Below are positions 9,941 to 39,148 of a stretch of 64,000 nt of DNA, one piece after another; the first letter of the stretch is position 1; every line of letters starts with the position of its first letter. Source of the DNA: Ostreococcus lucimarinus (Eukaryota); the NCBI GenBank assembly GCA_000092065.1, contig CP000590.1. One strand, written 5' to 3'. Position numbers and translations under genes: made by a program. The notes beneath the pieces were generated by a model. It was not told the DNA's origin. It searched no databases and saw only the letters and a list, made by a program, of their open reading frames with translations.

Positions 9941-11341
9941 CTACTGCACGACGCAACGCGACGACGAAGAGTCCACGCCAACAAAAGTTTCATCCACATC
10001 GTATCGTTGAGGGGTGAAATACGATTCGCGATTCACGTACCACACCACCGAGAAACGATCGCCACTGTATCCGCGAACCCAGTGCACGGATCTGCCGTCG
10101 AATCTCGCCAAACGCTCGCGCGTATCAATCATCCAGCGCGTCTTTCCGTCCTTGCTTTCTACGCATAACTCACCACCACCGGTAAAAGTGCCGAAAGACA
10201 TCGAGTACTGATGAGATTTGTCATCCTTGTCCAAGTGCGCCGAGGAGATGAAATTTTTCGTTATCGCTAGGCTATCGTAGGGGAACGTCTCGTCGACGGT
10301 TCGCATCAATCTCTCGCACGCATCCTTGAGTTTGGCGTACGGATCATTCGGCGACAATTCACGCTTCAAAACTATGTAGCCATCACTTTTCACGCCGCGG
10401 CGATGCGAACGCGCCGGCCACTTCGATCGAAGGAGTTCATCCTTCAAGCGCTGCGTCGCGGCGCTGTCCACCGCGACGCCTCGAAGGTTGACGTACGACG
10501 CCGCCTCGTTCGACGCCACCGCTTCATCGATGAGAGCTGCGTGTGTCATGCCGCGCGCCAGCGCGCGCTGTTCCAAGTCTTTTGCCGTCCACGCCATGAA
10601 AATCTCTCTCGCGGGCGGGTGCTCTCCGGGAGGCAACGCGCGAGCGGGAGGAGCAACTGCCGCCGGCGCAGCTTTCGCATCATTCGTCTTGTTCTTATAC
10701 GCCGCGGGCCTCGCCTTCAGTACGCTCGTGACTCCATCTTTCAACGTCACACTCACTTCATTCATAGCCGCCTGGAGCACGCGCGCCTCATCCGCGTCTC
10801 TGCACTGTAAAAACGCAAACGCTTTCCACTCTCCATTGACTTTATAACCCCTACGCTTTATGAACTTCACCTGCGGCTGTGGCAAGTCTGAGTTATGCGG
10901 CATCGCGTGCCAGATGACCTGGCGCACCCCTTTCATCGTGCCCGCGCTCCCGGACAGTCCACCGAGCCATAAATCAGCCGCCGGGTCGCCCGCCGCCGTC
11001 CCGCTCGAGTCGCCGCCTCGCGCTCTCAGTTCCTTCCGTATCGCCGCGCGCTTCCTGCGCCTTTCGTTCAGCGCCCGCACCTCTTCCTTCGTCATGTCCC
11101 TTTCCTTCTTGTGGCTCCTTCCGCTGCTCGCGTACGCGAGCGTCGGACCGTCCTCCCCGCGCGCCCTGGCGTCGAACGCCCTCGCCACCGACGTCTTGTG
11201 GACGCCCGCGCGCGCGCCCATCGACGACGTCGACGCATCGTCGGCATCGTCGATCGCGCGACACGGTCCGTCGCGCCTGAGATGACGGAACAGCGCGTTT
11301 CTCGACGCGAACGCCGTCCCGCACGTCGCGCACGACGCCAT
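9941..11341 (-). CDS. Hypothetical protein with N-terminal C2H2-like zinc finger and C-terminal putative 2OG-Fe(II) oxygenase fold
   Basis: C2H2-like finger CATCGTAFASRNALFRHLRR at the N-terminus. The C-terminus has HLD (HxD), then about 50 aa, then HWV, then about 9 aa, then RFS (RxS), which is the spacing typical of 2OG oxygenases. Confidence 0.4.
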   Translation of the reverse strand: MASCATCGTAFASRNALFRHLRRDGPCRAIDDADDASTSSMGARAGVHKTSVARAFDARARGEDGPTLAYASSGRSHKKERDMTKEEVRALNERRRKRAAIRKELRARGGDSSGTAAGDPAADLWLGGLSGSAGTMKGVRQVIWHAMPHNSDLPQPQVKFIKRRGYKVNGEWKAFAFLQCRDADEARVLQAAMNEVSVTLKDGVTSVLKARPAAYKNKTNDAKAAPAAVAPPARALPPGEHPPAREIFMAWTAKDLEQRALARGMTHAALIDEAVASNEAASYVNLRGVAVDSAATQRLKDELLRSKWPARSHRRGVKSDGYIVLKRELSPNDPYAKLKDACERLMRTVDETFPYDSLAITKNFISSAHLDKDDKSHQYSMSFGTFTGGGELCVESKDGKTRWMIDTRERLARFDGRSVHWVRGYSGDRFSVVWYVNRESYFTPQRYDVDETFVGVDSSSSRCVVQ

Positions 11342-22100: not shown

Positions 22101-23621
22101 TCACGGCTGGGCGCTGAAATCGCTTCGACTCGACGTTCGCCGAGGCCGTCGCGGTTTGTTCAGATCGAGCGAAAGTCGACGACTTAATACCGTCAGCGAC
22201 ACGAATCCTAAACCTATGACCACGAAAGGCCAAACATCTCGCCCGGGCGTGCCCGGTTTCATCGCCACCATCATCGCCACCAAGGAACCGCCGATGAGAG
22301 GCGCCACGCCTCGAGCGGCGTTGCCAAAGGTTCCGCTAAAGCCATTCACCGCGCCCAGCGTGTCCCTGGGTGAGGCGTTGTTCAAAATCAGCGAACTCCC
22401 GCCCATGATGATCGGACCGCTCATCCCACGCGCGAGACCGAGGCAAACGACGGCGACCCATGTCCACGCCTTGGACTTTTTCGCCGCGACGTGCGCGATC
22501 GGATGCAGCGGAAACGCCACGGCGTTCACCAGCAACGCGTACGTCAACAGCGTCACGATGCCGTACGCGCGACAGAGTCTGGTGAACAGAAACACTTGAA
22601 ACAGTAAAATAACGCACCCCATCACGGTGCCGAACGCACCGATTTCCAGCGAAGTCCAACCCAAACCGCCGTTCGCGACGGACGTCGCCATCCAAAGCGG
22701 CGTCATCTCCGCCCCGCACAAGACGACGGCGGTGCACCCCACCTGCGACGCGATCGCCGCGCGCACGTTCACGTCGCGCCACCACACGACCTCGTCCTCT
22801 ATACTTTCCACAGCCTTCTTCGTCGCCGCCGCCGCGTCCGCGTCCACCGCCGTCGTCTCCGCCGCGGCGTCGTCTTCGCTCGCATCCGGAAGCAGCTCCA
22901 ATTCCACGACGACCTCGACGTCGTCTCTGTTTCGATGCTTATCGATCTGCATCCACCCCCTCGCGTACGCCATCAACGTCGGCGCCGCGAGCGCCGCGAT
23001 CCATATGTTGCTCAAAAAGAACGGACGTCGCCTCAAAAACGTCGGGCACCGCGCGCCTCGCTCGCCCTCGAACGCCTTCCAATTTTCGCACGGCTCGCTC
23101 AACGCCGCCGCCAACGCCGGCGCCAGCGCGCTCGCCACCCCGTACGCCACCCCCGTCGTCGCGAACGCCCTCGCCACGTTCGTCTCGTCGCTCACCAGCG
23201 CCAACGCCGGTTTCTGCATCACCACCATCCCGTCCGCCAGCCCCTGGCACGCGCGCGCCGCGAACGCGCCGCTCGTCGTCCTCGCCATCGCGAACGCCGC
23301 CGTCGCGATCGCGTGCGCCACGCCGCTCGCGCATATCGCGCGTTCGAACCCTCGCGCGTCGCCCAGCCGTCCCCACGCCAGCGACGACGCCCCGCTCGCG
23401 AGCGGTTTCGTCGCCGTGAGCGCGCCGGCGACGAGCGCGCGCGAAGCCTCGCTCGCCTCGGGCCGCAGCGCGCGCGCCGCGAAGTACGCCGTGCTGAACA
23501 GCGCCGTCGTCCCGGCGATGGAGAGCATCGAGAACATCTGCACGACGGCGATCGTGCGCCAGTCCAGCGGCGTCTCGTCCGCGGGCGCGCGCGCGAATTC
23601 GAACGCGCGACGACGCGTCAT
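22101..23621 (-). CDS. Major facilitator superfamily transporter
   Basis: Twelve predicted hydrophobic segments. Start chosen at the Met at 23621. The ORF caller's extension to 23873 is Arg-rich and probably non-coding. Confidence 0.7.
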   Translation of the reverse strand: MTRRRAFEFARAPADETPLDWRTIAVVQMFSMLSIAGTTALFSTAYFAARALRPEASEASRALVAGALTATKPLASGASSLAWGRLGDARGFERAICASGVAHAIATAAFAMARTTSGAFAARACQGLADGMVVMQKPALALVSDETNVARAFATTGVAYGVASALAPALAAALSEPCENWKAFEGERGARCPTFLRRRPFFLSNIWIAALAAPTLMAYARGWMQIDKHRNRDDVEVVVELELLPDASEDDAAAETTAVDADAAAATKKAVESIEDEVVWWRDVNVRAAIASQVGCTAVVLCGAEMTPLWMATSVANGGLGWTSLEIGAFGTVMGCVILLFQVFLFTRLCRAYGIVTLLTYALLVNAVAFPLHPIAHVAAKKSKAWTWVAVVCLGLARGMSGPIIMGGSSLILNNASPRDTLGAVNGFSGTFGNAARGVAPLIGGSLVAMMVAMKPGTPGRDVWPFVVIGLGFVSLTVLSRRLSLDLNKPRRPRRTSSRSDFSAQP

Positions 23622-23672
23622 TAAGTGACGACTTGAACGCGAATCCGCGCGCGTCTCGTCTCGTCCGCGGGC

Positions 23673-23702
23673 GCGTCTGCGAATTCGAAGATTCGCAGAC
23701 GC
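23673..23702. promoter_or_regulatory. Perfect 12-bp-arm palindrome GCGTCTGCGAAT-tcgaag-ATTCGCAGACGC in divergent intergenic region
   Basis: The arms are exact reverse complements and the element contains GAATTC. Confidence 0.6.
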
Positions 23703-23811
23703 GCCATAAAGTGACGACGCGCGCGCGAATCGCGACGCCGCGCATCGCGACGCGACGCACGACACGCGATGCGGTGCGGCGAGACGCTCGCGACGCGCGC
23801 GCACGACGCGC

Positions 23812-23867
23812 GACGCGCGATTCGAGCGCGCGAATTCGTGACGCGCGATTCGAGCGCGCGAATTCGT
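23812..23867. repeat. Tandem duplication of a 28-nt unit GACGCGCGATTCGAGCGCGCGAATTCGT in the bidirectional promoter
   Basis: Two identical copies at 23812-23839 and 23840-23867. Confidence 0.8.
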
Positions 23868-23993
23868 AATCATCGATCGCGTCGTCGGCGCGCGCGTCGC
23901 GGACGTCTCGATGGACGCGCGGGCGCGCGCGACGCGCGAGCGCGCGCCGAGGCGACGCCGGAGACGTCGGGGATCGATTCGGACGACGGCGCG

Positions 23994-25370
23994 ATGAAGA
24001 GCGGGACGGCGGGCGCGACGGGGGGGCTGCTGGCGAGCTTTTTAGCCATGCGGCGCGGGTCGAGATTCGCGCACCAAGAGTTCTGCGCGCGGTGCGCGAG
24101 GGCGCATCGCGAGCGCGGCGTCTCGGTGACGGACGCGAGGCTGGAGAGCGCGATGATGGGGCTGTCGAGCGCGATGAAGTTCGGGACGAGCGAACAGGAC
24201 GCGTTCGCGAGCGCGGTGGCGATGGTGACGCTGACGCTGTATCGGTTCGATCGAATCGAAGCCGAGGGCGGGGAGGGAGAGGGAGAGGGAGAGGGAGAGG
24301 GAGAGGGAGAGGGAGAGGGAAGGTTGAGCGCGCGGACGTTGGAGGAGGCGAGAAAGCGCGTGGAAGAGGATAAGGAGGCGATGGGGATGTTGAAGTACAT
24401 CGAGATGACGAATAAGAACGCGGATGAGGGGTACACGCTTCGCAGGATGGAGCTCGAGCGACGATTCGCGAGCGGGGGCGAAAAGCGAACGCCGACCCCG
24501 GGCGAGTCCATCATGCGGATGAATTGCAAGCTCACGCTGTTGACGAGGGAGATGATAGAACTCGAACGCGGGATCACGCACGCGAGAAGAGGGCTGGAGG
24601 CGATGGAGGACGTCGACGCGACGGTGGACGAGACTGAAATTATTGAAATCGAGGCGCAACAGCAGTTGGCGTTGGCGTGGTGCACGAGAGAGCGCACGCC
24701 CGCGCGAGAGCTCGCGGCGGACATGCTCGTCGCGTTTTTCAGCGTCTTGACGAACCATCCAGTGGGGTACCGCGAGTTCGTTCGCGCGGCGCGAAGCGCG
24801 TACGAGGCTGGGATCTCTGCGGATGAAATCACGGGCGCGCTCGACGCCCCGGAATTCGACGTCGAGGGCACGCAGCGAGGGATGTTCGGTCGCGCCGCAG
24901 ACGCGCCAAAGATCTTCGCCGGCTTAGTCACGACAGCGTACGTGGCGTTCGAGGCCGAAGGCTTGCCTCTGCCTGCCGCTGCGAAAGGGGATGAAGATTT
25001 ATTCGCCTACGCCTCGCATCCGCGCGCATCGGACGAAGACGCCGAGTTCCAGCGACCGACAGACGAAGACACGAGACGCGCCCGCGCGCGAGGTTTGCGA
25101 AAGGCTGTCGAAGGTTGGATGGCGATGGATCGCGACGAGCTCGCGAACGAAGTTAGCGCGTCGCTATCGATCGACGAATCGATCGACGACGACGCGGCGC
25201 AGCCTTTCGCGGGATCGACGACGACGAAATCGACGGCCCCGGGCGACGGCTCTTTCGCCGTCGTCCGCGATGAGGCGTTTGGTGCTTCCTCCATAACACT
25301 CGTCACGCTACGACACCAGCGTAACATCGTGAGTTTCGTGCGAAACGATCTCGCCGTCCAAGGCGCTTAG
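23994..25370 (+). CDS. Hypothetical protein with (GE)8 repeat
   Basis: A long ORF with biased composition, including a (GGAGAG)n microsatellite that encodes EGEGEGEG. No family recognised. Confidence 0.4.
   Translation: MKSGTAGATGGLLASFLAMRRGSRFAHQEFCARCARAHRERGVSVTDARLESAMMGLSSAMKFGTSEQDAFASAVAMVTLTLYRFDRIEAEGGEGEGEGEGEGEGEGEGRLSARTLEEARKRVEEDKEAMGMLKYIEMTNKNADEGYTLRRMELERRFASGGEKRTPTPGESIMRMNCKLTLLTREMIELERGITHARRGLEAMEDVDATVDETEIIEIEAQQQLALAWCTRERTPARELAADMLVAFFSVLTNHPVGYREFVRAARSAYEAGISADEITGALDAPEFDVEGTQRGMFGRAADAPKIFAGLVTTAYVAFEAEGLPLPAAAKGDEDLFAYASHPRASDEDAEFQRPTDEDTRRARARGLRKAVEGWMAMDRDELANEVSASLSIDESIDDDAAQPFAGSTTTKSTAPGDGSFAVVRDEAFGASSITLVTLRHQRNIVSFVRNDLAVQGA
24271..24322. repeat. 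(GGAGAG)n coding microsatellite
   Basis: About 8 units, encoding (EG)n. Confidence 0.8.
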
Positions 25371-25451
25371 CCGCCGCGGTGTAACAACGAGATTTCCGAG
25401 GTCCCGACGCGAACCCAACTTCTAACCGCAAACCACCGCGCTCGGCCGACA

Positions 25452-25919
25452 ATGGCGGCGACGGTCCCGTTCGAAACGATCGATGAGTTCATCAACGCGC
25501 TCGCGAAGATTGAACTGATTCATCGACTCATAGCGAAACACGACGCGGATGACAGAGAAACGCTGGCGCCCGGCGACGATTTCTACCTTACCCCGACGAG
25601 CATTCAACGCGTGTCGCCGCGCCATAACAGATACGAATTGCTTTTCACATCCTACAAAGTGCGACAACCGCACCGCGACGCCGTGGACCAGCTGGGCTAT
25701 CTCGGCGCCGACATCAAACTCGGTTTCGACGCCGTTCGCGGCACGCAGAGCGCGAGTCTGTGCGAAGACAACAAATCGGACCGGGACATCAACGATGCAT
25801 TCTACGACAAGTGCGTGAAACGCGCGAGCGAAGTTCTCGGCGTCGAGTATCCGAGCGAATGGCTCTCGAAGTACTGCGAATTCGTCGCCAACCATTGGCC
25901 AAAGTTACCGTATCGTTGA
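25452..25919 (+). CDS. Hypothetical protein (155 aa)
   Basis: A clean ORF of typical composition with no recognisable motifs. Confidence 0.4.
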   Translation: MAATVPFETIDEFINALAKIELIHRLIAKHDADDRETLAPGDDFYLTPTSIQRVSPRHNRYELLFTSYKVRQPHRDAVDQLGYLGADIKLGFDAVRGTQSASLCEDNKSDRDINDAFYDKCVKRASEVLGVEYPSEWLSKYCEFVANHWPKLPYR

Positions 25920-25985
25920 GTCTCCGCGCGCGCGCTTCCTTCGTACATAGATTACACACAGACTACGCATCACAGACTACACACA

Positions 25986-26552
25986 TCACAGGCCCGCCTC
26001 GCGTCGCAGTTCCTCGAGGGCTCGCTTGGCGTACGAGCACGTCGCGTCCACGTGTCGCGCGAGCGCCACCTTGTAGCGATCCTCGCGCGTCCGGCCCGGA
26101 AGCTCGCCGAAAATCTTGCGCGCGACGACGAACTCCACGCACCCTCGCACCGCCTTCTTCCCCAATCCGCGTCCTCGAAGCGCTTCCGGCGTCCACGTGT
26201 GTTCCACCACGAACGTCTCGATCGTCGAGCTGCATTCTCCCGACGCGTACGCGAAGCTCAGTCCTCGCTCGTCGGGCGCCGGGTCGACGCGCGACGCCAC
26301 GGCTGACAAAATCTCGATCTCAGCGCTCTTCGGCGCGACCGAAAGCGCGCACGCGCGCGCGTGATCGAGTTTCCGCCGACTTCCGTCGTCGTCCCGCGCC
26401 GACGGCGCGCACCGACACGCCATCGCGCGATCGAGGTCGAGCGGTTCGTTGAGGACGCTGACGCACCAGTACGCGTCCGAGCCGTCGCCGCCCGCGGTGG
26501 GCGACCACGCGCCGTGGGCGCGATCGAAAAGGTCGGCGTCCTCGTCGGGCAT
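25986..26552 (-). CDS. NATD1: NATD1-like GNAT-fold protein
   Basis: The block FVVEHTWTPEALRGRGLGKKAVRGCVEFV resembles the NATD1/Gtlf3b C-terminal GNAT half. Confidence 0.55.
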   Translation of the reverse strand: MPDEDADLFDRAHGAWSPTAGGDGSDAYWCVSVLNEPLDLDRAMACRCAPSARDDDGSRRKLDHARACALSVAPKSAEIEILSAVASRVDPAPDERGLSFAYASGECSSTIETFVVEHTWTPEALRGRGLGKKAVRGCVEFVVARKIFGELPGRTREDRYKVALARHVDATCSYAKRALEELRREAGL

Positions 26553-26642
26553 GGGCGTCGAGGCGCGTCGAAGGACGCGCGCGCTCGATCCGCGCGCGGC
26601 GCTGTGGGGCGCGTCGCGTCTTCACACGTCGCCGCCGCGAAC

Positions 26643-27536
26643 ATGTCGATCCCCGATCGACCGCGCGCGCGCGGTCTCGCGTCGGCGCGGACGATACTGT
26701 TCGTCGTTTGCGCGTTCGCGATCGCGCGCGCCGCGCGCGTGGACGCTTCGGCGACGCACGCGCGGCGCGCGATGTCGTCAACACCATCGTCCGAAGCGTC
26801 CGTCGACGACGCCAAACTCCGCGCGGACTTCGCGCTGGAGGACTCCGCGCGCGCGGTGGACGTCATCGTGTACGAGGGTCCGGCGTACGACGGGTGCTGC
26901 CCGCTCGCCGGGAAGAACGAGGTCGAAGGCGGCGAGGAGATGCTCGCGTGCTGCTCGAGCGGAGGGTGTTGTCCGAGCACCGAGCCCGGCGGCGGGTTCG
27001 GGAAACATTTAGCGTGCTGCGAGAGTAAACAAGGGAGCGAGGAGCACAATAGAGCGCGATCAAGGGTGTGGTACTCCGGGCCGTCGTACGATGGGTGCTG
27101 TCCGAACGCCGATGGGGATGATTTGGCGTGTTGCGGCGCGAGCGCGGGGTGCTGTCCCGCGGACGGCGGTCGAAGGCACTCGTGTTGTCCAGATCTTCCG
27201 GTCGTACCGGCGGTCGCGCAAGGGCAGGACGAATACGAGTACGAAGACGCAGTCGATGATGGTGAGGAGCGCGAAGAGTGGGGACGATCGACGTACGACT
27301 CACAAGGTTTAGACGGCGAGGGCGAGTCGTGGACCAAGGGCGGTCGCGCCGGTCTGGAGGAATACTCTGACGTAGAGGACACATCAGTGGATGAGAATAG
27401 CTCGTCCACGATGTACTTACAACTAGCGGCGTGCGTGTGTGTGGTGGTGTGGGCCTCGGCGTTAGCCGCGGGGACGTTTTACGCACCGACGGATGGGCGC
27501 CGGGACGACGCACAAGAACACTTGCGGTTGATTTAG
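26643..27536 (+). CDS. Cys-rich type I membrane protein with duplicated vicinal-cysteine (CC) modules
   Basis: Signal peptide, then two repeats of YDGCCP...LACC...GCCP...CC, then an acidic stretch and a C-terminal transmembrane segment LAACVCVVVWASALAAG. Confidence 0.55.
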   Translation: MSIPDRPRARGLASARTILFVVCAFAIARAARVDASATHARRAMSSTPSSEASVDDAKLRADFALEDSARAVDVIVYEGPAYDGCCPLAGKNEVEGGEEMLACCSSGGCCPSTEPGGGFGKHLACCESKQGSEEHNRARSRVWYSGPSYDGCCPNADGDDLACCGASAGCCPADGGRRHSCCPDLPVVPAVAQGQDEYEYEDAVDDGEEREEWGRSTYDSQGLDGEGESWTKGGRAGLEEYSDVEDTSVDENSSSTMYLQLAACVCVVVWASALAAGTFYAPTDGRRDDAQEHLRLI

Positions 27537-27611
27537 AATTTTTAGCTTGTCAGAATAGTGAATTAAGGCGTGATGAATTACATTTCTCCTAACGAGTGCA
27601 AAATGTGATTT

Positions 27612-30600
27612 TTAAGCGGTTTGAGCGACGGCGACTTCCACAGCCGCGCGGCTCGCGACGAGGTTTCTGTCGCCGTAGACGTCGTCGATGCGAGAGGTTT
27701 GCGGCCAGAACTTGTGAGAGCGAGTCCATTCAACCGGGAACGCACCGAGATCGCGCGGGTACGGGCGGTTCCACTCCTTCGCGGTGACGACCTCCGCGGT
27801 GTGCGGGGCGTTCTTGAGAACGTTGTTCTCGCGGTCCACCTTACCGTCCTCAATGTCGCGGATTTCACCACGAATCGCGATGAGAGCGTCGCAGAATCGA
27901 TCGAGCTCCGCCTTGGACTCGGACTCGGTCGGCTCAATCATCAACGTACCGGCGACCGGCCAAGACATCGTCGGCGAGTGGAAACCGTAATCCATCAAGC
28001 GCTTCGCGATGTCCGCGACTTCGACGCCGGTGGCATCCTTGATCGGGCGCATGTCGAGGATGAACTCGTGCGCGCACGTGTCGTTCTTGCCGCTGAAGAG
28101 CACCGGGTAGTAATCCTCCAAGCGCTTGGACATGTAGTTGGCGTTCAAGATGGCGCGCTTAGACGCGTTCGCCAAACCTTCGGAACCCATCATAGCGATG
28201 TAAGAGAAGGAAATCGGTAAAATGAGCGCGGATCCGTACGGGGCAGCCGCGACGACACCGAAGGGCTTGTCCCCGCCGACGGCGACGGCACCATCCTTCA
28301 TGGACGGGTGATCCGGCATGAAGGGCGCCAAGTGCGCCTTGACACCGATCGGGCCCATACCCGGGCCACCACCACCGTGCGGAATGCAGAAAGTCTTGTG
28401 CAAGTTCAAGTGGCACACATCCGCACCAATGAAACCCGGAGAAGTCAAACCGACTTGGGCGTTCATGTTGGCGCCGTCCATGTACACTTGACCGCCGTGT
28501 TGGTGAATGACTTCGCAAATTTCCTTGATGTCTTCCTCGTAGACACCGTGCGTCGACGGGTACGTAACCATGAGAGCCGCCAAGTTCGCGGAGTGCTTTT
28601 CGGCCGCAGCCTTGAGCTCGGCGACGTTGATGTTACCCTTGGCGTCGGTGCCAATGACGACGATCTTCATGCCGCACATCGCGGCGGACGCCGGGTTGGT
28701 ACCGTGCGCGGAAACCGGGATGATGCACACGTCACGGTGGTGGTCACCGCGAGATTGGTGGTAGGCACGGATACCCATCAAACCAGCGTACTCACCAGAC
28801 GCACCAGAGTTCGGCTGGAGGGACATGGCGTCGAAGCCGGTGATCTCGCAGAGTTGCTTTTCGAGACCGCGGAACATCTCTTGGTAACCAAGCGTTTGAT
28901 CTTTCGGCGCGAACGGGTGAATGTTCGCAAGCTCCGGCCACGTGATCGGAATCATTTCAGTCGTTGCGTTGAGCTTCATCGTGCAAGAGCCGAGAGCGAT
29001 CATGGAGTGAACCAAGGAGAGATCCTTCTCTTCCAAGCGCTTGAGGTAGCGCACCATCTCGTGTTCACTGTGGTACTGGTTGAACACCGGGTGGGTCATG
29101 AATTCAGACTTACGCGCCATCGGCATGGTCGTGTTCACAGACGGCGCAACTTGCGCGACGGTGGGCGCGGCAGCGCCACCAGCGAACACCTTGAAGAGAG
29201 CGTCGACGTCGGCGATTTCTGTGGTTTCGTCAAACGCCAAAGAGACGTGGTCGGCGTCCATCTTGCGAATGTTGATGCCAGCGGACGCGCACGCCTTGAC
29301 GATGGCATCCGCGCCACTCGGGCACTTCAGCGTGACGGTGTCGAAGAACTCCGGGGTGGTGTTCTTGAAGCCAAGCTTTTCGGCACCGGCGGCGAAGACG
29401 GCGGCAAAGTCGTGCGAGCGCTTGGCGATTTGCTTCAAGCCCTCCGGACCGTGGTAAACACCGTACATGGCAGCTATGTTGGCCAACAACGCTTGCGCGG
29501 TGCAAATGTTCGAAGTCGCCTTGTCACGACGGATGTGTTGCTCGCGCGTTTGCATCGCCATGCGAAGCGCCGGCTTGCCTTCGGCGTCGATGGACTCGCC
29601 GATGATGCGGCCCGGCATCAAACGCTTGCAGTCGTGCGTCGTCGCCAAGAAGGCAGCGTGCGGACCACCGTAGCCCATGGGCACGCCGAATCGCTGAGAT
29701 GAACCGATGACGATGTCAGCACCCCATTCACCCGGAGGTTGTAACATGGTGAGCGACAACAAGTCGGCGGCGGCGACGACGCGAATGCCGTTGGCTTGCG
29801 CCTGGGACACGATGGGCTTGTAGTCGATGATCGAACCATCCGTGGCCGGGTATTGCACGAGAACGCCGCAGACATCCTTCGCGGTGTAATCGAAAGAGTT
29901 CTCATCGCCCACGACGGCTTCGAGACCCAAACCTTCGGCGCGCGTCTGCACCACCGCGATGGTTTGCGGGTGGCACTTGTTCGACACGTAGAACTTCGGC
30001 TTCTTACCGCGGTTCAACGCAGAGCACATCGTCATCGCCTCCGCCGCAGCCGTGCCTTCGTCCAACAACGACGAGTTAGACAGCGGCATGCCGGTCAAGT
30101 CGGTAATCATCGTTTGAAAGTTCAACAACGATTCCAGGCGTCCTTGCGACGCCTCCGCCTGGTACGGCGTGTACTGCGTGTACCACCCCGGATTTTCCAA
30201 AATGTTACGCAAAATCACCGTCGGCACGTGCGTGCCGTGATACCCGGTCCCGATGTAGTTCTTAAAAACCTTATTCTTGCTCGCCATGTTCTTCATCATC
30301 GTCAAGAATTCGCTCTCCGTGAGCGGCTGCGTGTACTCGCCCATGTCCATCGTCTTCTTCAGGCGAATATTTTCCGGCACCGTCGCGTCGATCAGCGCGT
30401 CGATGTCCTTGAACCCGATCACCGCGCACATCTCCGCCACTTCTTGCGTCGTTCCGGAGTTATGTCGTCGCTCGAACGTGTCCAGCGGCTTCAGCGCTTC
30501 GGTCGAGACCGCCCGCGCGCCGGATGCGATGAGCGACGTCATCCCCCCTCTCGCGCGCGCCGTCGTCGCGGCGACGCCCGCGCTGCGTCGCGCGATCGCC

Positions 30601-30761
30601 GCGCGCGCGCCGTGGGCGTACGCGCGACCGTTCGCGAGCGCTCGAGCGCCCGCGGGCGCGCCGATCGCGCTCGTGACGGACGGCGACGCGGCGACGGGCG
30701 CCGATCCCCCCTGGAGGCGCGCGATGCGCGTCAACGCATCGCTCGCGCGACGACGAAACAT
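27612..30761 (-). CDS. GLDC: Glycine dehydrogenase (decarboxylating), glycine cleavage system P-protein
   Basis: Full-length P-protein homology, including the PLP-lysine region. Start chosen at the Met at 30761. The ORF extends to 31025 and may carry a mitochondrial presequence. Confidence 0.95.
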
Positions 30762-31041
30762 CGCGCGCGGGCGGTCTTGAGCGCGCGAGAGCGCGGGCGA
30801 AGCGGTCGGCGCGTGCGAGGCGCTCGAGCGTGCGTCGCGGCGACGGGCGCGCGCGAATGCCGCGCGACGCGCGTCGCGACGAGTGGATAATCTTTTTCCA
30901 GGGGTGACTCGAGGGGTGACTCGCGACGGTTCGTGACTCAAGAAAGCGATCCGATCCCCGACGGTTGGCGACCGGGTCTGGACGCGTTTTGGCGCTGCTC
31001 CGCGTTTCGGCGCCGTTCTAATCAAAAGAGGCTAAAGCGCG

Positions 31042-32793
31042 TCACGCGACGTCGATCGGAACGCCGTCGAGCTTGGCTTGTAAGATGCGATCGACGAGAG
31101 ATGGATTGGCGCGACCGCCGCTGGCCTTGAGACACGCGCCGACGAAGAAACCCTTGAGCTTGGTTTTGCCGGCGCGATACTGCTCGAGCTGCCCGGCGTT
31201 GGCTTCGAGGACGCCGTCAACCAAGGCTTCGATCTCGCGCGGGTCGGAAACTTGGGACAAGCCGCGGTCGGCGACGAGTTTTTTCGCGCTTCCGCCTTTT
31301 TCTAAGAGCTCGGGGAGGAGATCTTTGCCGATTTTACCGCTGATTTCTCCGGCGTCGATCATGGCGCAAAACTCGCCGAGCGCCTCGGGCGAGAGCGGGA
31401 GCTGGGAAACATTTTCCATCTTTGAGTTCTTCAGGTGGGCCATGATGTCTCCCGTGAGCCAGTTGGCGACTTGTTTCGCCGATGGTTTCGCGCTCGAGCT
31501 CAGCGCGGCGTCGAAATACGTCACGAGCTCTTTGTCCTCGACGAGCACTTGCACGTCGGCGGGCGGCAAGCCGAGCGCGGCGTATCGCGCGCGAACCATC
31601 GACGGCAGCTCGGGCATGGACGCCACGACGTTCGAGATGAACTCTTCCGATAGCCTCAGCTTGGGGATGTCCGGTTCTGGGAAGTAGCGATAATCCGCCA
31701 AGCCTTCCTTCTTGCGCATGGCGACGGTTTTCTGCGCGGCCTCGTCCCACGTGCGCGTCTCTTGCACGATTTCATCGCCTCGCCCTGATCGAATGAGCTC
31801 CTCTTGGCGCGCGATCTCGTAGTCGATCGCGCGCGCCATCGCGTTGAACGAGTTCATGTTCTTCACCTCGACTTTGGTGCCGAATCGCTCGCGACCCACC
31901 GGTCGGATGCTCACGTTGACGTCGTTTCGCATTGACCCTCGGGACATGTCCCCGTCGCACGCATCCAAAAACCGCACTATTCGTCGCAATTCCGAACCGT
32001 ACGCCGCGACCTCGCGTCCTGTGCGCAAATCGGGCTCGGTGACGATCTCCAGCAGCGCCACGCCCGCTCGATTAAAGTCGGCGTACGAGTACTTTTTCCC
32101 ATCCTCGCCCTTCGCGTGCGTCAATTTTCCCGCATCTTCCTCCAAGTGCGCGCGCGTGATCCCCACCCGCTTCACCTCTCCGCCGTCTTCCACTGGTAAA
32201 ACCACGTCGATGGATCCGTCGTAACACAGCGGCTCGTCAAACTGCGAAATCTGATACCCTTTCGGCAAATCCGGGTAAAAGTACTGCTTACGATCGAACT
32301 TGCTCGTCCTTCGTATCTTCGCCCCGAGCGCGGTCCCGATCGCGATCCCCTTCTTCACCACCGCCGAGTTCAGCACCGGAAGCGTCCCCGGATGTCCCAT
32401 GCACGTCGGACACACCCTCGTGTTCGGTTCCGCGCCGTACTCGTACGCGCACCGACAAAACGCCTTCGTCCTCGAGTTCAGCTGCACGTGCGTCTCGATC
32501 CCGATCACCGCCTCGAACCTCGTCTCCGGCGTGATCTCGATGTCCGCCTTTCCCTCGTCGTTCTCCACGCGCACGCTCGCCGCGCGCGCGCGTCGCGCGC
32601 CCTCGCGTCGCGCGCCCTCGCGCGTCCCCGTCCCCGGGCGTCGTCCTCGTCGTCGCGTCGTCGACGCGCTCGCCGCGCGCGATCGCGCCGCGCGCGACGC
32701 GACCGGGGACGCGACCGTCATCGACGTCGTTCCGCGCGCGCGCGCCGCCGTCGCGTCGCGCGCGTCGAGCTCTCGCGTCGCGCGCGCGCGCAA
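31042..32793 (-). CDS. gatB: Glutamyl-tRNA(Gln)/aspartyl-tRNA(Asn) amidotransferase subunit B
   Basis: The GatB catalytic and tail domains are conserved (GIETHVQL, GatB_Yqey C-terminus). The N-terminal Arg-rich stretch looks like an organellar presequence. Confidence 0.9.
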   Translation of the reverse strand: MRARATRELDARDATAARARGTTSMTVASPVASRAARSRAASASTTRRRGRRPGTGTREGARREGARRARAASVRVENDEGKADIEITPETRFEAVIGIETHVQLNSRTKAFCRCAYEYGAEPNTRVCPTCMGHPGTLPVLNSAVVKKGIAIGTALGAKIRRTSKFDRKQYFYPDLPKGYQISQFDEPLCYDGSIDVVLPVEDGGEVKRVGITRAHLEEDAGKLTHAKGEDGKKYSYADFNRAGVALLEIVTEPDLRTGREVAAYGSELRRIVRFLDACDGDMSRGSMRNDVNVSIRPVGRERFGTKVEVKNMNSFNAMARAIDYEIARQEELIRSGRGDEIVQETRTWDEAAQKTVAMRKKEGLADYRYFPEPDIPKLRLSEEFISNVVASMPELPSMVRARYAALGLPPADVQVLVEDKELVTYFDAALSSSAKPSAKQVANWLTGDIMAHLKNSKMENVSQLPLSPEALGEFCAMIDAGEISGKIGKDLLPELLEKGGSAKKLVADRGLSQVSDPREIEALVDGVLEANAGQLEQYRAGKTKLKGFFVGACLKASGGRANPSLVDRILQAKLDGVPIDVA

Positions 32794-35971: not shown

Positions 35972-38900
35972 TTAGACATTTTCGCTGTTGTCTCGCGCCG
36001 TCACCGTCGCCGTTCGTTTCGCCGCCGGGAGCGTGAACGGTATTTTCGCGGGAAACGATGTGTTCGCCATCGCCACCGGTTGTTTCGTCGTCATGGCGAC
36101 CGCGATTGCGGACTCGCGTTCTTCTTCGAGTCTTTCGAATTCGCCCACGCAGTGAATCTGTTTCAACTCCTCGCGATTGTTTCGCTCGCGCAAGATGCTC
36201 ATACCGTTGAAAATAACCAAAAGAGCTGTTCCAACGTCTACCGCGATCGCTTGCCACAAGCCCGTGTAGCCGAGGATGGAGAGAACGAGGACCACGAGCT
36301 TGGTAGTGACGGAGAAGATGACGTTTTGTCGAATCTTGCGCACACACTCGCGACCGAGCACGATGGTGTCCACCAGTAAACTCAGATCGTTTGTCATCAA
36401 CGCCACGTCGGCGGTTTCCATCGCCGCAGCCGTACCGGCGACGCCCATAGCGACGCCAACGTCCGCCGCAGTCAACGCTGGAGCGTCGTTGATTCCGTCG
36501 CCCACCATCGCCACCGTGCCTCGGCCGAAGAGCTTCAAGGCGATTTTGGACGACTTATTCTCTAACGCCTCGATCGCTTCGCCGATGATACGGAGTTTGT
36601 CTTGCGGTTTGAGTGAAGCACGTACGTGCGTTGGATTGACGCCTACTCGCGCTCGCAAGTACTCGGCCGACCCAGGATTGTCTCCAGTGATCATCTCCAC
36701 CTCTGCGCCTATTTTTCTCAAGTCATCCACCGCTTTCGCCGCCGTAGGGCGAACGACGTCATCACATCGAATGATGCCCGCGAGACGACCGTCGACCCCG
36801 ACCCATACCACGGTACCTCCTTCGCTTTCCCACGTATTCGCCATGTTCGTCAGCTCGACATCGTTCGCGTCCCACGCGTTCTCCAACGCGAGCTCGCCGT
36901 TGCCGACTTCGACGCGCCTGCCGTCGACGATAGCTTTCGCGCCTTGCCCGTCGATAGTTTCAAAGTCTTCTACGACACATTGTTCCGAAGCTACGCGGAC
37001 TGCCGCACCGGCGCCACGCAAGACAGCGTGCGCGAGCGGATGTGACGAACGCGATTCCAGGGCGCAAAGCCATCGAAGGAGGGCGCCGACGCCGAGCGCC
37101 GGACGTTGGTTCTCGTCGCCGTTTCTCGCCGGACGCACCAAACGCACCGCAGTGAGCGTGAAAGAACCGCGCGTGAGCGTGCCCGTTTTATCCATGAACA
37201 CGCGCTCGATGCGGCCGAGTCTTTCGAGGTGCGCAGAGCCCTTGACCAAGACGCCGCGTTGCGCGCACACCGTGAGTGCGCTCACGGCAACGACGGGAGT
37301 GCTCAATACGAGCGCACATGGACACGCGATGACAAGTAAGACGCACGCCAAATACGCCGGCTCGTTCCCTTTGACCCCAGAACTGTACTGTACGATCATG
37401 ACGAGCGCGGCGGCGATGATGACGACCGGCGTGTAGACCCTCGCGAATCTCTCAATGGCGAGCTCGCTCGAGCTCCGCGACGCTTGCGCTTCTTCGATGA
37501 GACGGACGAGCCGCGAGACTGCTGAATCCGCGGCGACGCACGAGACACGAATCTCTAAGATCCCACCTTGATTCAGTGTGCCGCCGTACACGACGTCACC
37601 GACACGTTTAGGCACGGGCATGGACTCGCCCGTGAGCGCGCTTTCGTCAATCGCGCTCGCGCCGGCGACGATTTCGCCGTCGAGTGGCACCTTCTCTCCA
37701 GGCTTGACGAGGACGACTTCACGCACTTTAACCTCTTCCACCGCCACGAGTGCCGTATCGCCTCGACGCCGCGCCGTTTCCGGTCGAAGCGCCAGCACTG
37801 CGCCTATCGCGCGCGACGTTTTCGCCATAGCGCGCGCCTCGAGCCATTCTGAGAGCGCAAAGAGCGCCACCACCGCGGCGGCTTCGCCGAAATCTTGAAG
37901 CGCACAAGCGCCGACGATGGCGATCCCCATCAGCGTGTTAATATCGACGATACCATTTCGTAAGCTCCCGAACGCTTTCAGGGCGATTTCGGGAATACCA
38001 ACCGCAACGGACGCCAGAGCGACGTAGCGTAAATGTCGCGCGTCTCCGCCCAAGTAGTGAAACAGCGACACGACGAAGAAGAAGCACGCCAACGTGATTC
38101 GAAACGGTGGCCTCGCGAACGCATCGCTCGATTGCGCGTCATCGCGAGCTGAGGTACCGTCGCTCGGACCTTTCGTATCGCTCACGTGCGCCTGCAAACG
38201 CACCGCGTTCAAAGCGTCCACGATGGTCTCCGCGCTCACCGCCGACGCCGCGTGCTCGACGAGCACCGTCTTCGTGGGCACGACGACTTTGACGTCTCGC
38301 ACGCCCTCCATCTTATCTAAAACCCTATGAATCAGCGGTACCTCACTCGGACAGCATATTCCGTTCACGAGCAAGCGCGTGTGCGTGCTCTGTTCCGTCC
38401 CGCCCTTTGATTCCAGCGCCCATCTCGCGACGACGGCGTCGGAATCGTCCGCGTCGTTCGCGCCCTCCCGCGTCGACGGAAACGGCTTGTAATCCCCCCC
38501 ATCCACCCCACCGCGTCGATGTCGCAACACCTTCACCCACCCGTGATCTTCCACGTGCGTCTTCGTCTTTAACGCGCACCCGTCGCCGCAACAGTCCGCG
38601 TTTGAAAAATGCACCAACCGCTCGCCCACGAGAAAATCGACGTGGTCGTCGTGCGGCACCGTCTCGCACTTCCTCGCCACCAACCGCGCCCGCGCCTCTT
38701 CCACGTCCGGCGGGCACCCGATCGCGCCGAACAGCTCCACCATCCTCTCGCGTTCCTCGCGCGCCGCGCCCTCCGCCTTCGCCCCGCGTCCCGTCGTCGT
38801 CGTCGTCGTCGTCGCGCTCGTCGCCCGCGCCGCCGCCCACGACCCATCCTCTCGCGCCACCACGAGCGCGCCCTCGATCAGGAACGCATCGAGAGGCGCG

Positions 38901-39148
38901 CTTCCGTCGCTCGCGCCGCTCGCCGCGCCGCCGTCGACGCGCTCGACGCTCGTCGCGCAAATCTTCGTCGGGTCCAGGCACAAGCCTTGCTCCGCGCACG
39001 GCGTCGTCTCGCCGCACCACGCGCATCGCGCGTCGCGAAACGCCGCGGCGACGCGCGCGGGCATCGACGCGCGCCGCGTCGCGACGCCGCGCGAGCTGGA
39101 CGCGCGAGCGCGACGGCGAGCGCGACGCGAACTGCGGTCGTCACTCAT
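35972..39148 (-). CDS. HMA: Heavy-metal P1B-type ATPase, Zn/Cd (HMA2/4-like)
   Basis: The CPC transmembrane motif (VIACPCALV), [15 protein letters not shown], and an HMA domain with GICCPSE that is typical of Zn/Cd pumps. The true start is probably an internal Met (about 39067). Confidence 0.9.

Follow-up and report, generated by a model that had tools for sequence, protein, structure and literature searches.

The open reading frame (ORF) at positions 26643..27536 (+) of a 64,000-nucleotide stretch of Ostreococcus lucimarinus DNA (GenBank assembly GCA_000092065.1, contig CP000590.1; the whole stretch is called the window below) is a genuine conserved single-copy gene of Mamiellales-type green picoalgae. 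Its product carries two copies of a module whose cysteines all lie in adjacent Cys-Cys (CC) pairs, and we name the gene, the protein and the module after this feature. By sequence comparison the CC module is an undescribed domain family, with no relative in Pfam or in the Protein Data Bank (PDB). We hold the plus-strand frame to be a real gene because the doublets and their spacing are kept among homologues, the ratio of non-synonymous to synonymous substitution rates (dN/dS) is low, and the codon-position pattern, the conserved position and an intron-split orthologue all point the same way.

Evidence for the gene and its homologues

The frame opens at the first in-frame ATG downstream of a divergent GNAT gene, and its two ends are exactly those given in an earlier sequence-only reading of the window. 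Comparison with the locus of a close relative (L003) showed 11, 7 and 22 differences at codon positions 1, 2 and 3, and dN/dS (Nei-Gojobori) was 0.28 overall and 0.024 in the CC region (11 synonymous changes, 1 non-synonymous). Against the more distant L001 and L005, the ratio was 0.17-0.18 in the CC region and 0.28-0.60 in the stalk that follows it. GC contents at the three codon positions of the CC gene are 0.65/0.56/0.74, and the order GC3 > GC1 > GC2 is likewise found in the adjoining GcvP gene.

These observations bear on the possibility that there is no gene here, the ORF being due to chance in GC-rich DNA or to shadowing of the antisense ORF 26258..27409 (383 aa), a caveat that the sequence-only reading had itself attached. 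Long ORFs do occur on both strands all through the window (63% GC), and neither the exact 297-aa product nor the 254-aa product starting from Met44 has a record among called proteins. Against this, the substitution pattern, dN/dS, the cysteine framework, the gene's position and the intron-split orthologue all follow the plus frame, and near-identical products have been called in more than 100 environmental contigs. Purifying selection acts on the plus frame and not on the antisense ORF, whose GC2 of 0.71 is typical of a shadow frame. We therefore reject the antisense ORF as a true gene, and regard the absence of a gene at this locus as barely credible.

A protein search returned 15 homologues at 47-61% identity, together with environmental copies at 99%, and a profile search added five further homologues. 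About 25 homologues keep every doublet and spacing, the distances in orthologues being 9-20, 4, 14, 25, 9, 4-5 and 8-9; conservation of this spacing was a check proposed by the sequence-only reading, as was a search of other Mamiellales; we found O. tauri Q00ZJ5 and, in Mamiellales-type genomes, the positional orthologues described below. When 1.84 billion cluster representatives were searched exhaustively with hmmsearch, 16 hits reached E <= 0.001 and 14 of them were genuine; P0025 and P0027 were discarded as spurious repeat proteins. There was no other domain architecture among the hits of this search, and no member could be placed outside Mamiellales-type genomes. Capture by prasinoviruses was also considered, and IMG/VR contained no viral homologues.

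Gene order around the CC gene is conserved as well. In the window, the divergent GNAT gene lies 90 bp away on one side, and on the other the convergent gene for the glycine dehydrogenase P-protein (GDC-P) lies 75 bp away, followed by GatB. The order CC gene, GDC-P(-), GatB(-) recurs in L001, which carries a 57%-identical homologue, in L003 with a close variant, at the divergent P0026 locus L007 (43% GC), at the P0022 locus L009 (67% GC) and in the intron-rich L012 (59% GC). Orthologues thus placed adjoin GDC-P and GatB in loci of 43%, 59%, 63% and 67% GC, and we take the loci to be positional orthologues of one single-copy gene across Mamiellales-type genomes. In L012 (6001..7900) the gene is split by several short introns and conservation is limited to the exons, with module 1, each half of module 2 and the transmembrane (TM) segment encoded separately. 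Prokaryotic gene callers report these exons as separate proteins, P0019 and P0028, and apparent single-module members of the family proved to be artefacts of this intron-split gene calling.

Paired-cysteine modules and membrane topology

The gene and the parts of its product are as follows, with the basis or the conserved residues of each part.

26643..27536 (+): complete intronless coding sequence of 297 amino acids and a TAG stop (27534-27536), with its ATG at 26643
26643..26753 (+): predicted signal peptide, residues ~1-37, with an Arg-rich n-region and the hydrophobic core TILFVVCAFAIA (residues 17-28); hydropathy and AlphaFold2
26817..26864 (+): pre-module segment LRADFxxEDxARAxDV, residues 59-74; L59, A61, F63, E66, A69, R70 and D73 nearly invariant
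26856..27029 (+): CC module 1, residues 72-129, VxYEGPAYDG-CC-P x13 LA-CC x3 G-CC-P x10 HLA-CC; four doublets invariant in all homologues
27030..27056 (+): inter-module linker QGSEEHNRA, residues 130-138; G131 and N136 invariant
27057..27197 (+): CC module 2, residues 139-185, SRVWYSGPSYDG-CC-P x6 LA-CC x4 G-CC-P x6 HS-CC-PDL; alignment
27198..27392 (+): acidic, weakly conserved stalk, residues 186-250, containing YEYEDAVDDGEEREEW and YD[SA][QK]G[LI]; conservation and dN/dS
27393..27479 (+): predicted TM helix, residues 251-279, YLQLAAxxCVVVWxxAL; hydropathy and AlphaFold2
27480..27533 (+): predicted cytosolic tail YAPTDGRRDDAQEHLRLI, residues 280-297; alignment

Eight CC doublets, at residues 85, 103, 109, 125, 152, 163, 170 and 181, fall within a span of 98 residues, in agreement with the at least eight pairs counted earlier. 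They account for 16 of the 19 cysteines of the protein, the remaining three being in the signal peptide and the TM helix, and cysteine makes up 15% of the module region. Shuffled versions of the protein (200,000 shuffles) contained 1.09 doublets on average and 6 at most, compared with the eight observed. The ectodomain contains neither CxC nor CxxC, the CC protein has no Met- or His-rich motifs, and the CC pattern was not found elsewhere in a six-frame translation of the window.

The proposal of two repeats held up well: modules 1 and 2 of the window protein are 46% identical, and 28 modules from 14 proteins could be aligned with all eight cysteines invariant and with G8, P9, Y11, G13, G31 and P34 conserved in at least 90%. 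The consensus unit is [φ]-[SD]-x-V-x-[YF]-x-G-P-[AS]-Y-[DE]-G-CC-[PD] ... [LM]-x-CC-x3-4-G-CC-P ... [L]-x-CC, in which doublets of the G-CC-P type alternate with doublets of the L-x-CC type. The connection between CC2 and CC3 is fixed at 4-5 residues, and the loops from CC1 to CC2 and from CC3 to CC4 range over 6-20 and 9-24 residues. The repeat pattern first written down for the protein agrees with this overall, except that the first gap of module 2 has 6 residues (NADGDD) and not 8-14. Its closing HxCC element needs more correction, as module 1 ends in H-L-A-CC, that is HxxCC, and the His of module 1 is not conserved, distant members having F/L-L-[DE]-CC at this place.

Conservation within the modules extends beyond cysteine. 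The Gly, Pro, Tyr and Asp residues ahead of the first doublet (Y-x-G-P-x-Y-D-G-CC-P) are invariant, and Y77, Y82, W143, Y144 and Y149 are conserved. Module 2 is the best-conserved stretch of the protein, with S140, R141, V142, Y144, G146-P154, C163, C164, G169-P172 and C181-P183 invariant, and the segment NRAxSRV ahead of it is partly mirrored by the pre-module segment ahead of module 1. Mean identity was 70% in the modules, 63% in the TM helix, 29% in the tail apart from its C-terminal motif, 20% in the stalk and 18% at the N-terminus. P0026 (L007 6001..7125) is the most divergent orthologue, and its module 2 is without the GPxY cap. Because the Gly, Pro, Tyr and Asp residues are invariant, each module has exactly eight cysteines, CxC and CxxC are absent and the CC2-CC3 connection is rigid, we take the module pattern to reflect a small, well-defined fold in which two loops vary, and not a flexible thiolate peptide.

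The type I architecture described in the sequence-only reading, consisting of a signal peptide, duplicated modules, an acidic stretch and one C-terminal TM helix, recurs in all complete homologues. Hydropathy peaks at residues 18-27 near the N-terminus, where AlphaFold2 places a helix (15-36), and possible AxA-type cleavage sites follow A28, A35 or A37. Every complete homologue has a hydrophobic N-terminus, although so little identity is retained there. Chloroplast or thylakoid targeting was rejected, as the n-regions of P0013, P0019, P0021 and P0022, at 5-10 residues, are too short for an organellar transit peptide. We also rejected a tail-anchored topology starting from Met44, which the position of the TM helix would fit, but the upstream ATG and the hydrophobic N-terminus are kept in all complete orthologues.

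At the other end of the protein, hydropathy peaks at residues 264-273 and AlphaFold2 predicts a helix at 252-279 with a confidence score (pLDDT) of up to 88. Acidic residues (D/E) precede this helix and basic residues (K/R) follow it. Because of the N-terminal hydrophobic segment and this change of charge across the TM helix, the Cys-rich part should be lumenal or extracellular, and a type I membrane protein is strongly indicated. Within the helix, A263 is invariant, and L259, A262, C266, V267, V268, W270 and L274 are conserved in at least 90%, which suggests contacts inside the membrane. One member, P0014, aligns over the CC modules and then fully diverges ahead of the TM region; a frameshift or an assembly error in that contig seems a likelier cause than a different architecture.

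The acidic stretch noticed earlier, YEYEDAVDDGEEREEW, is present at residues 197-212; it is, however, not juxtamembrane as had been thought, lying about 40 residues before the TM helix and inside the stalk. The stalk as a whole has 21 D/E versus 4 K/R (residues 187-250 counted) and an AlphaFold2 pLDDT below 50. A divergent clade from GC-rich genomes, comprising P0015, P0022, P0023, P0024 (L006, L009) and L012 6876..7559, has a much longer stalk with the motifs DPxYGxFAxx[DE]PGGxGYY and LHTK[RT]WW[ED]R[YH] just before the TM helix. Ostreococcus-type proteins are without these motifs and share YD[SA][QK]G[LI] instead.

Just past the membrane, G285 is invariant and R286 nearly invariant (DGR motif), and the C-terminus of the window protein is formed by an acidic dileucine-type motif, EHLRLI (residues 292-297, nucleotides 27516-27533). 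The strict form [DE]xxxL[LI] occurs in 13 of 18 complete tails, compared with 0.6 expected from shuffled tails, and a relaxed dileucine-type motif in 17 of the 18, compared with 1.0 expected; among the versions found in orthologues are ERTGLL, EHRALL, EDERLL, EAEALL and ETRGLL. The [D/E]XXXL[L/I] signal is read by the sigma subunits of adaptor protein (AP) complexes and in plants sends VIT1, NRAMP3 and NRAMP4 to the vacuole (PMC8905187). Neither the dileucine-type motif nor the strong conservation of the TM helix had been pointed out in the sequence-only reading. The tail of P0026 ends in KAYASV, a YxxΦ-type motif at the extreme C-terminus, and this orthologue has possibly swapped one adaptor signal for another.

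Known families and competing explanations

Searches of sequence and structure databases bore out the impression that the architecture was not a recognised one. Pfam gave no hit at E <= 10 for the CC protein, its ectodomain, module 2 or any of 14 members, and the positive control, human granulin, matched PF00396 at 7.2e-19. A profile of the module had 0 hits among PDB sequences at E <= 10, and the full-length profile matched presenilin-1 only (E 0.013-0.037), over the acidic stretch, TM1 and 'FYTRKDG'. This alignment covers residues 251-286 (27393..27500, +) with the partner string VCVVVWASALAAGTFYAPTDGR, and the FY-x3-DG that the two share after the helix is odd; a relationship to presenilin-1 was rejected as probably a TM and low-complexity coincidence. 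AlphaFold2 returned no confident fold, with pLDDT of 43.3 for the full length (16 sequences; below 50 in the ectodomain) and 54.8 for a single module (28 module sequences), and a Foldseek search of the PDB with the low-confidence module model gave 0 matches. Cystine-rich peptides are known to be hard for AlphaFold (PMC11035057).

Granulin itself was the first lead, suggested by the CC-CC-CC-CC pattern and the strings GCCP and HxCCP. Granulin and CC modules alike belong to the secretory pathway, are built around four consecutive CC doublets and are repeated in tandem, and local strings of the form G-CC-P ... [AL]-x-CC ... x4 ... [GH]-CC-P are alike. In granulins the doublets lie in stacked β-hairpins and link the layers above and below (PMC11035057), and granulins are present in green algae (PMC4527844). 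However, CC modules are without the four flanking single cysteines of the 12-Cys framework C-C-CC-CC-CC-CC-C-C, and the granulin spacings, fixed at about 8, 6 and 5 in seven human repeats, contrast with the 6-20, 4-5 and 9-24 of the CC family. Granulins of algae and plants extend cysteine proteases at the C-terminus, whereas the CC protein is a membrane protein. Homology was rejected on the Pfam and hhalign results, and granulin is the nearest analogue in cysteine logic, a structural analogy at most.

The window also contains a predicted plant-type P1B-2 (Zn/Cd) ATPase at 35972..39148 (-), with CPC at residue 609, DKTGT at 653, HP at 703 and GDGIND at 883. Its N-terminal GICCPSE fits the GxCCxxE signature of plant HMA2/3/4, and its long N-terminal extension also carries NADCCGDGC; Pfam at 1e-5 reported E1-E2_ATPase and Hydrolase only, with no HMA-domain hit. 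The GxCCxxE of plant P1B-2 pumps HMA2 and HMA4 is like the CC protein in having a Cys-Cys dyad in a Gly/Pro/Ser/Glu context within the same green lineage, and GICCPSE of the window pump can be set beside GGCCPSTE (module 1, GxCCxxxE) and AGCCPAD of the CC protein. They differ in that the pump motif belongs to a cytosolic HMA domain of the ferredoxin-like type, each such domain having a single dyad, whereas the CC protein has eight dyads in a lumenal or extracellular repeat, with its acidic position one residue out of the GxCCxxE register or not conserved. Metallothioneins resemble the CC protein in being Cys-rich, Gly/Ser/Pro-rich and low in hydrophobic residues, and some contain CC and CCP strings. 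They are, however, small and cytosolic, with no signal peptide or TM helix, a mixture of CxC, CxxC and CC, and no aromatics; the CC protein has CC only, conserved Tyr, Trp and Phe, and type I topology. Neither HMA (PF00403) nor metallothionein families of Pfam were hit by the CC protein or the 14 members.

With regard to the tail, LIMP-II (DERAPLI) and the mannose-6-phosphate receptors are single-pass proteins with C-terminal acidic dileucine signals. The CC protein has in common with such dileucine-sorted proteins a short cytosolic tail, an acidic cluster and [DE]xxxL[LI] near the C-terminus, the rest of the tail drifting; there is no sequence relationship, and their ectodomains are unrelated to that of the CC protein.

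The explanation that we rank first, and whose chances of being right we would put at about even, is a disulfide-laddered lumenal or extracellular domain on an AP-adaptor-sorted type I membrane protein that serves as receptor or accessory subunit. A cleavable signal peptide would take the N-terminal part into the lumen of the endoplasmic reticulum, the TM helix would anchor the protein, and the 18-residue tail would stay cytosolic. The eight cysteines of each module, in their four doublets, would form four disulfides. Adjacent residues of a β-strand point to opposite faces, and an all-CC framework is therefore expected of a granulin-like, stacked-hairpin disulfide ladder. Stacked hairpins are probable; the variable CC1-CC2 and CC3-CC4 loops would form their tips, and a ligand or partner would be likely to bind at the invariant Y-x-G-P-x-Y-D-G cap. 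A flexible acidic stalk would keep the domain away from the membrane, and [DE]xxxL[LI] in the tail would be read by AP sigma, resulting in sorting or cycling between the trans-Golgi network or plasma membrane and the endosome or vacuole. The protein would then serve as a receptor for cargo or ligand, or accompany another membrane protein as an accessory subunit; the conserved TM helix favors a partner in the membrane. More tentatively, and with slightly less than even confidence, we propose a new disulfide-rich fold for the 4xCC module: a cystine ladder made of vicinal pairs throughout, in which the terminal cysteines of granulin are missing.

Several points weigh against this explanation. The low-confidence AlphaFold2 models and the Foldseek null lend the putative disulfide ladder no structural support, the oxidation state of the cysteines is deduced from the topology alone, and hhalign against the seven human granulin repeats gave probabilities of 4.7% over 13 columns and 11.9% over 8. 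Cleavage of the signal peptide was assessed by eye. Several orthologues (O. tauri-type tails) have L-V or L-F in place of the dileucine, the O. tauri motif being EDARLV, P0026 is without the acidic dileucine motif, and short linear motifs such as ExxxLL easily arise. Transcript support and localisation data for the CC gene were sought and none was found; the short homologue-bearing contigs L005, L010 and L011 are genomic, with the convergent neighbour present.

The sequence-only reading had put forward a candidate metal-binding surface protein. In this explanation, the CC doublets of a membrane-tethered protein would stay reduced, or become so in an acidic compartment, and hold Zn(II), Cd(II) or Cu(I) as thiolates, buffering metal or handing it over on the trans side of pumps, and the dileucine tail would direct the protein to a vacuolar or acidocalcisome-like store. 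CC dyads are proven Zn/Cd ligands in the GxCCxxE of plant P1B-2 HMA2/4 (PMC3411818), but in the CC protein a conserved signal peptide precedes the domain and places it on the oxidising side. GICCPSE of the window pump does resemble GGCCPSTE of module 1, and acidic residues stand beside many doublets; yet the E/D after CCxx varies (N in P0002, S in P0013), the candidate His is replaced by F or L in distant members, and there are no CxC, CxxC, Met-rich or His-rich motifs. Dileucine motifs sort the vacuolar metal transporters VIT1, NRAMP3 and NRAMP4 (PMC8905187). The conserved aromatics and 15% Cys are unlike metallothioneins, and no HMA or metallothionein domain was hit. No computed result supports metal binding, with topology, CC-only cysteines, invariant aromatics, Gly and Pro, and the non-conserved His leaning against it, and we consider it unlikely. 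A functional link to the P1B pump, raised as speculation in the sequence-only reading, was rejected: the pump is 8.4 kb and five genes away, its proximity is ordinary block synteny, and L007 differs beyond GatB, with no pump before the locus ends. A more specific version, a 'transmembrane metallothionein' brought by its dileucine tail to an acidic vacuole or acidocalcisome-like store, where its 16 lumenal thiols would act as a Zn/Cd/Cu(I) sink or hand-over chaperone on the trans side of P1B pumps, is less probable again. The remaining candidate overlaps with the disulfide-ladder explanation and takes the CC protein, with its single pass, to assist or regulate a multi-pass membrane protein (transporter, pump or channel) as one of its subunits, in which the TM helix and the juxtamembrane Y-x-[KR]-x-DGR would dock the partner, the Cys-rich domain would be a lumenal cap and the tail would sort the complex. 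It draws on a TM identity nearly that of the modules (63% versus 70%, with 20% in the stalk), on the invariance of A263 and G285 and near-invariance of C266, V267, V268, W270 and R286, and on the single gene copy per genome. The conservation of the TM helix could, however, equally mean homo-oligomerisation, and the neighbours GNAT, GDC-P and GatB are unrelated housekeeping genes; as an explanation in its own right we find it doubtful, on a par with metal binding.

Neighbouring genes, annotation and significance

The 75-bp spacer between the CC gene and the convergent GDC-P gene (27537..27611) is AT-rich compared with the 63% GC of the window, GC being about 0.54 in 300-bp windows around it, and presumably serves both genes as 3' end and polyadenylation region. 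The order MFS transporter(-), unknown(+), CC protein(+), GDC-P(-), GatB(-) is common to the window (22101..32793) and L007; in L009 and L012 a gene of the pullulanase type lies upstream instead. The GNAT gene (25986..26552, -) seems confined to Ostreococcus-type loci. At 23769..25370 (+) lies a 533-aa ORF with no Pfam hit and with positional counterparts in L003 (544 aa) and L007 (712 aa), which may be another conserved orphan beside the CC gene.

Exact matches to O. lucimarinus CCE9901 entries exist for other ORFs of the window, for example 9944..11341 (-), which is XP_001420199.1, and the reference gene model at the CC locus may be missing or wrong. Gene calls from environmental sequences start variably: at Met44, with loss of the signal peptide (the 254-aa P0029, from automatic gene callers), at upstream GTG codons, which add a stretch that is antisense to GNAT, or, in the 137-aa P0039, at an internal TTG. 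In O. tauri the orthologue, XP_003081762.1 / Q00ZJ5, is an "unnamed product" and belongs to homologue cluster P0004, and a literature search for Q00ZJ5, CAL56287 and XP_003081762 found no mention of it. As the O. lucimarinus copy is apparently absent or mis-modelled among called proteins, the locus also offers an annotation fix.

The family of the CC gene is a lineage-restricted orphan with an unusual arrangement of cysteines, and its members fall into the broad class of proteins with cystine-rich ectodomains. With eight invariant cysteines all in doublets, and 14 genuine representative clusters in 1.84 billion, the CC module merits a Pfam entry. A metal-holding ectodomain, if true, would give a route into trace-metal storage by picoalgae, and a 'transmembrane metallothionein' would mean metal buffering inside an organelle by an undescribed means. 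If instead the disulfide ladder is correct, a compact and probably very stable scaffold would be added to the known cystine-rich folds. Mamiellales, which include Ostreococcus, Micromonas and Bathycoccus, rank with the most abundant eukaryotic phytoplankton, and their genomes are very compact; a single-copy, strongly constrained gene held at one position in these genomes therefore likely does something that the cells need.

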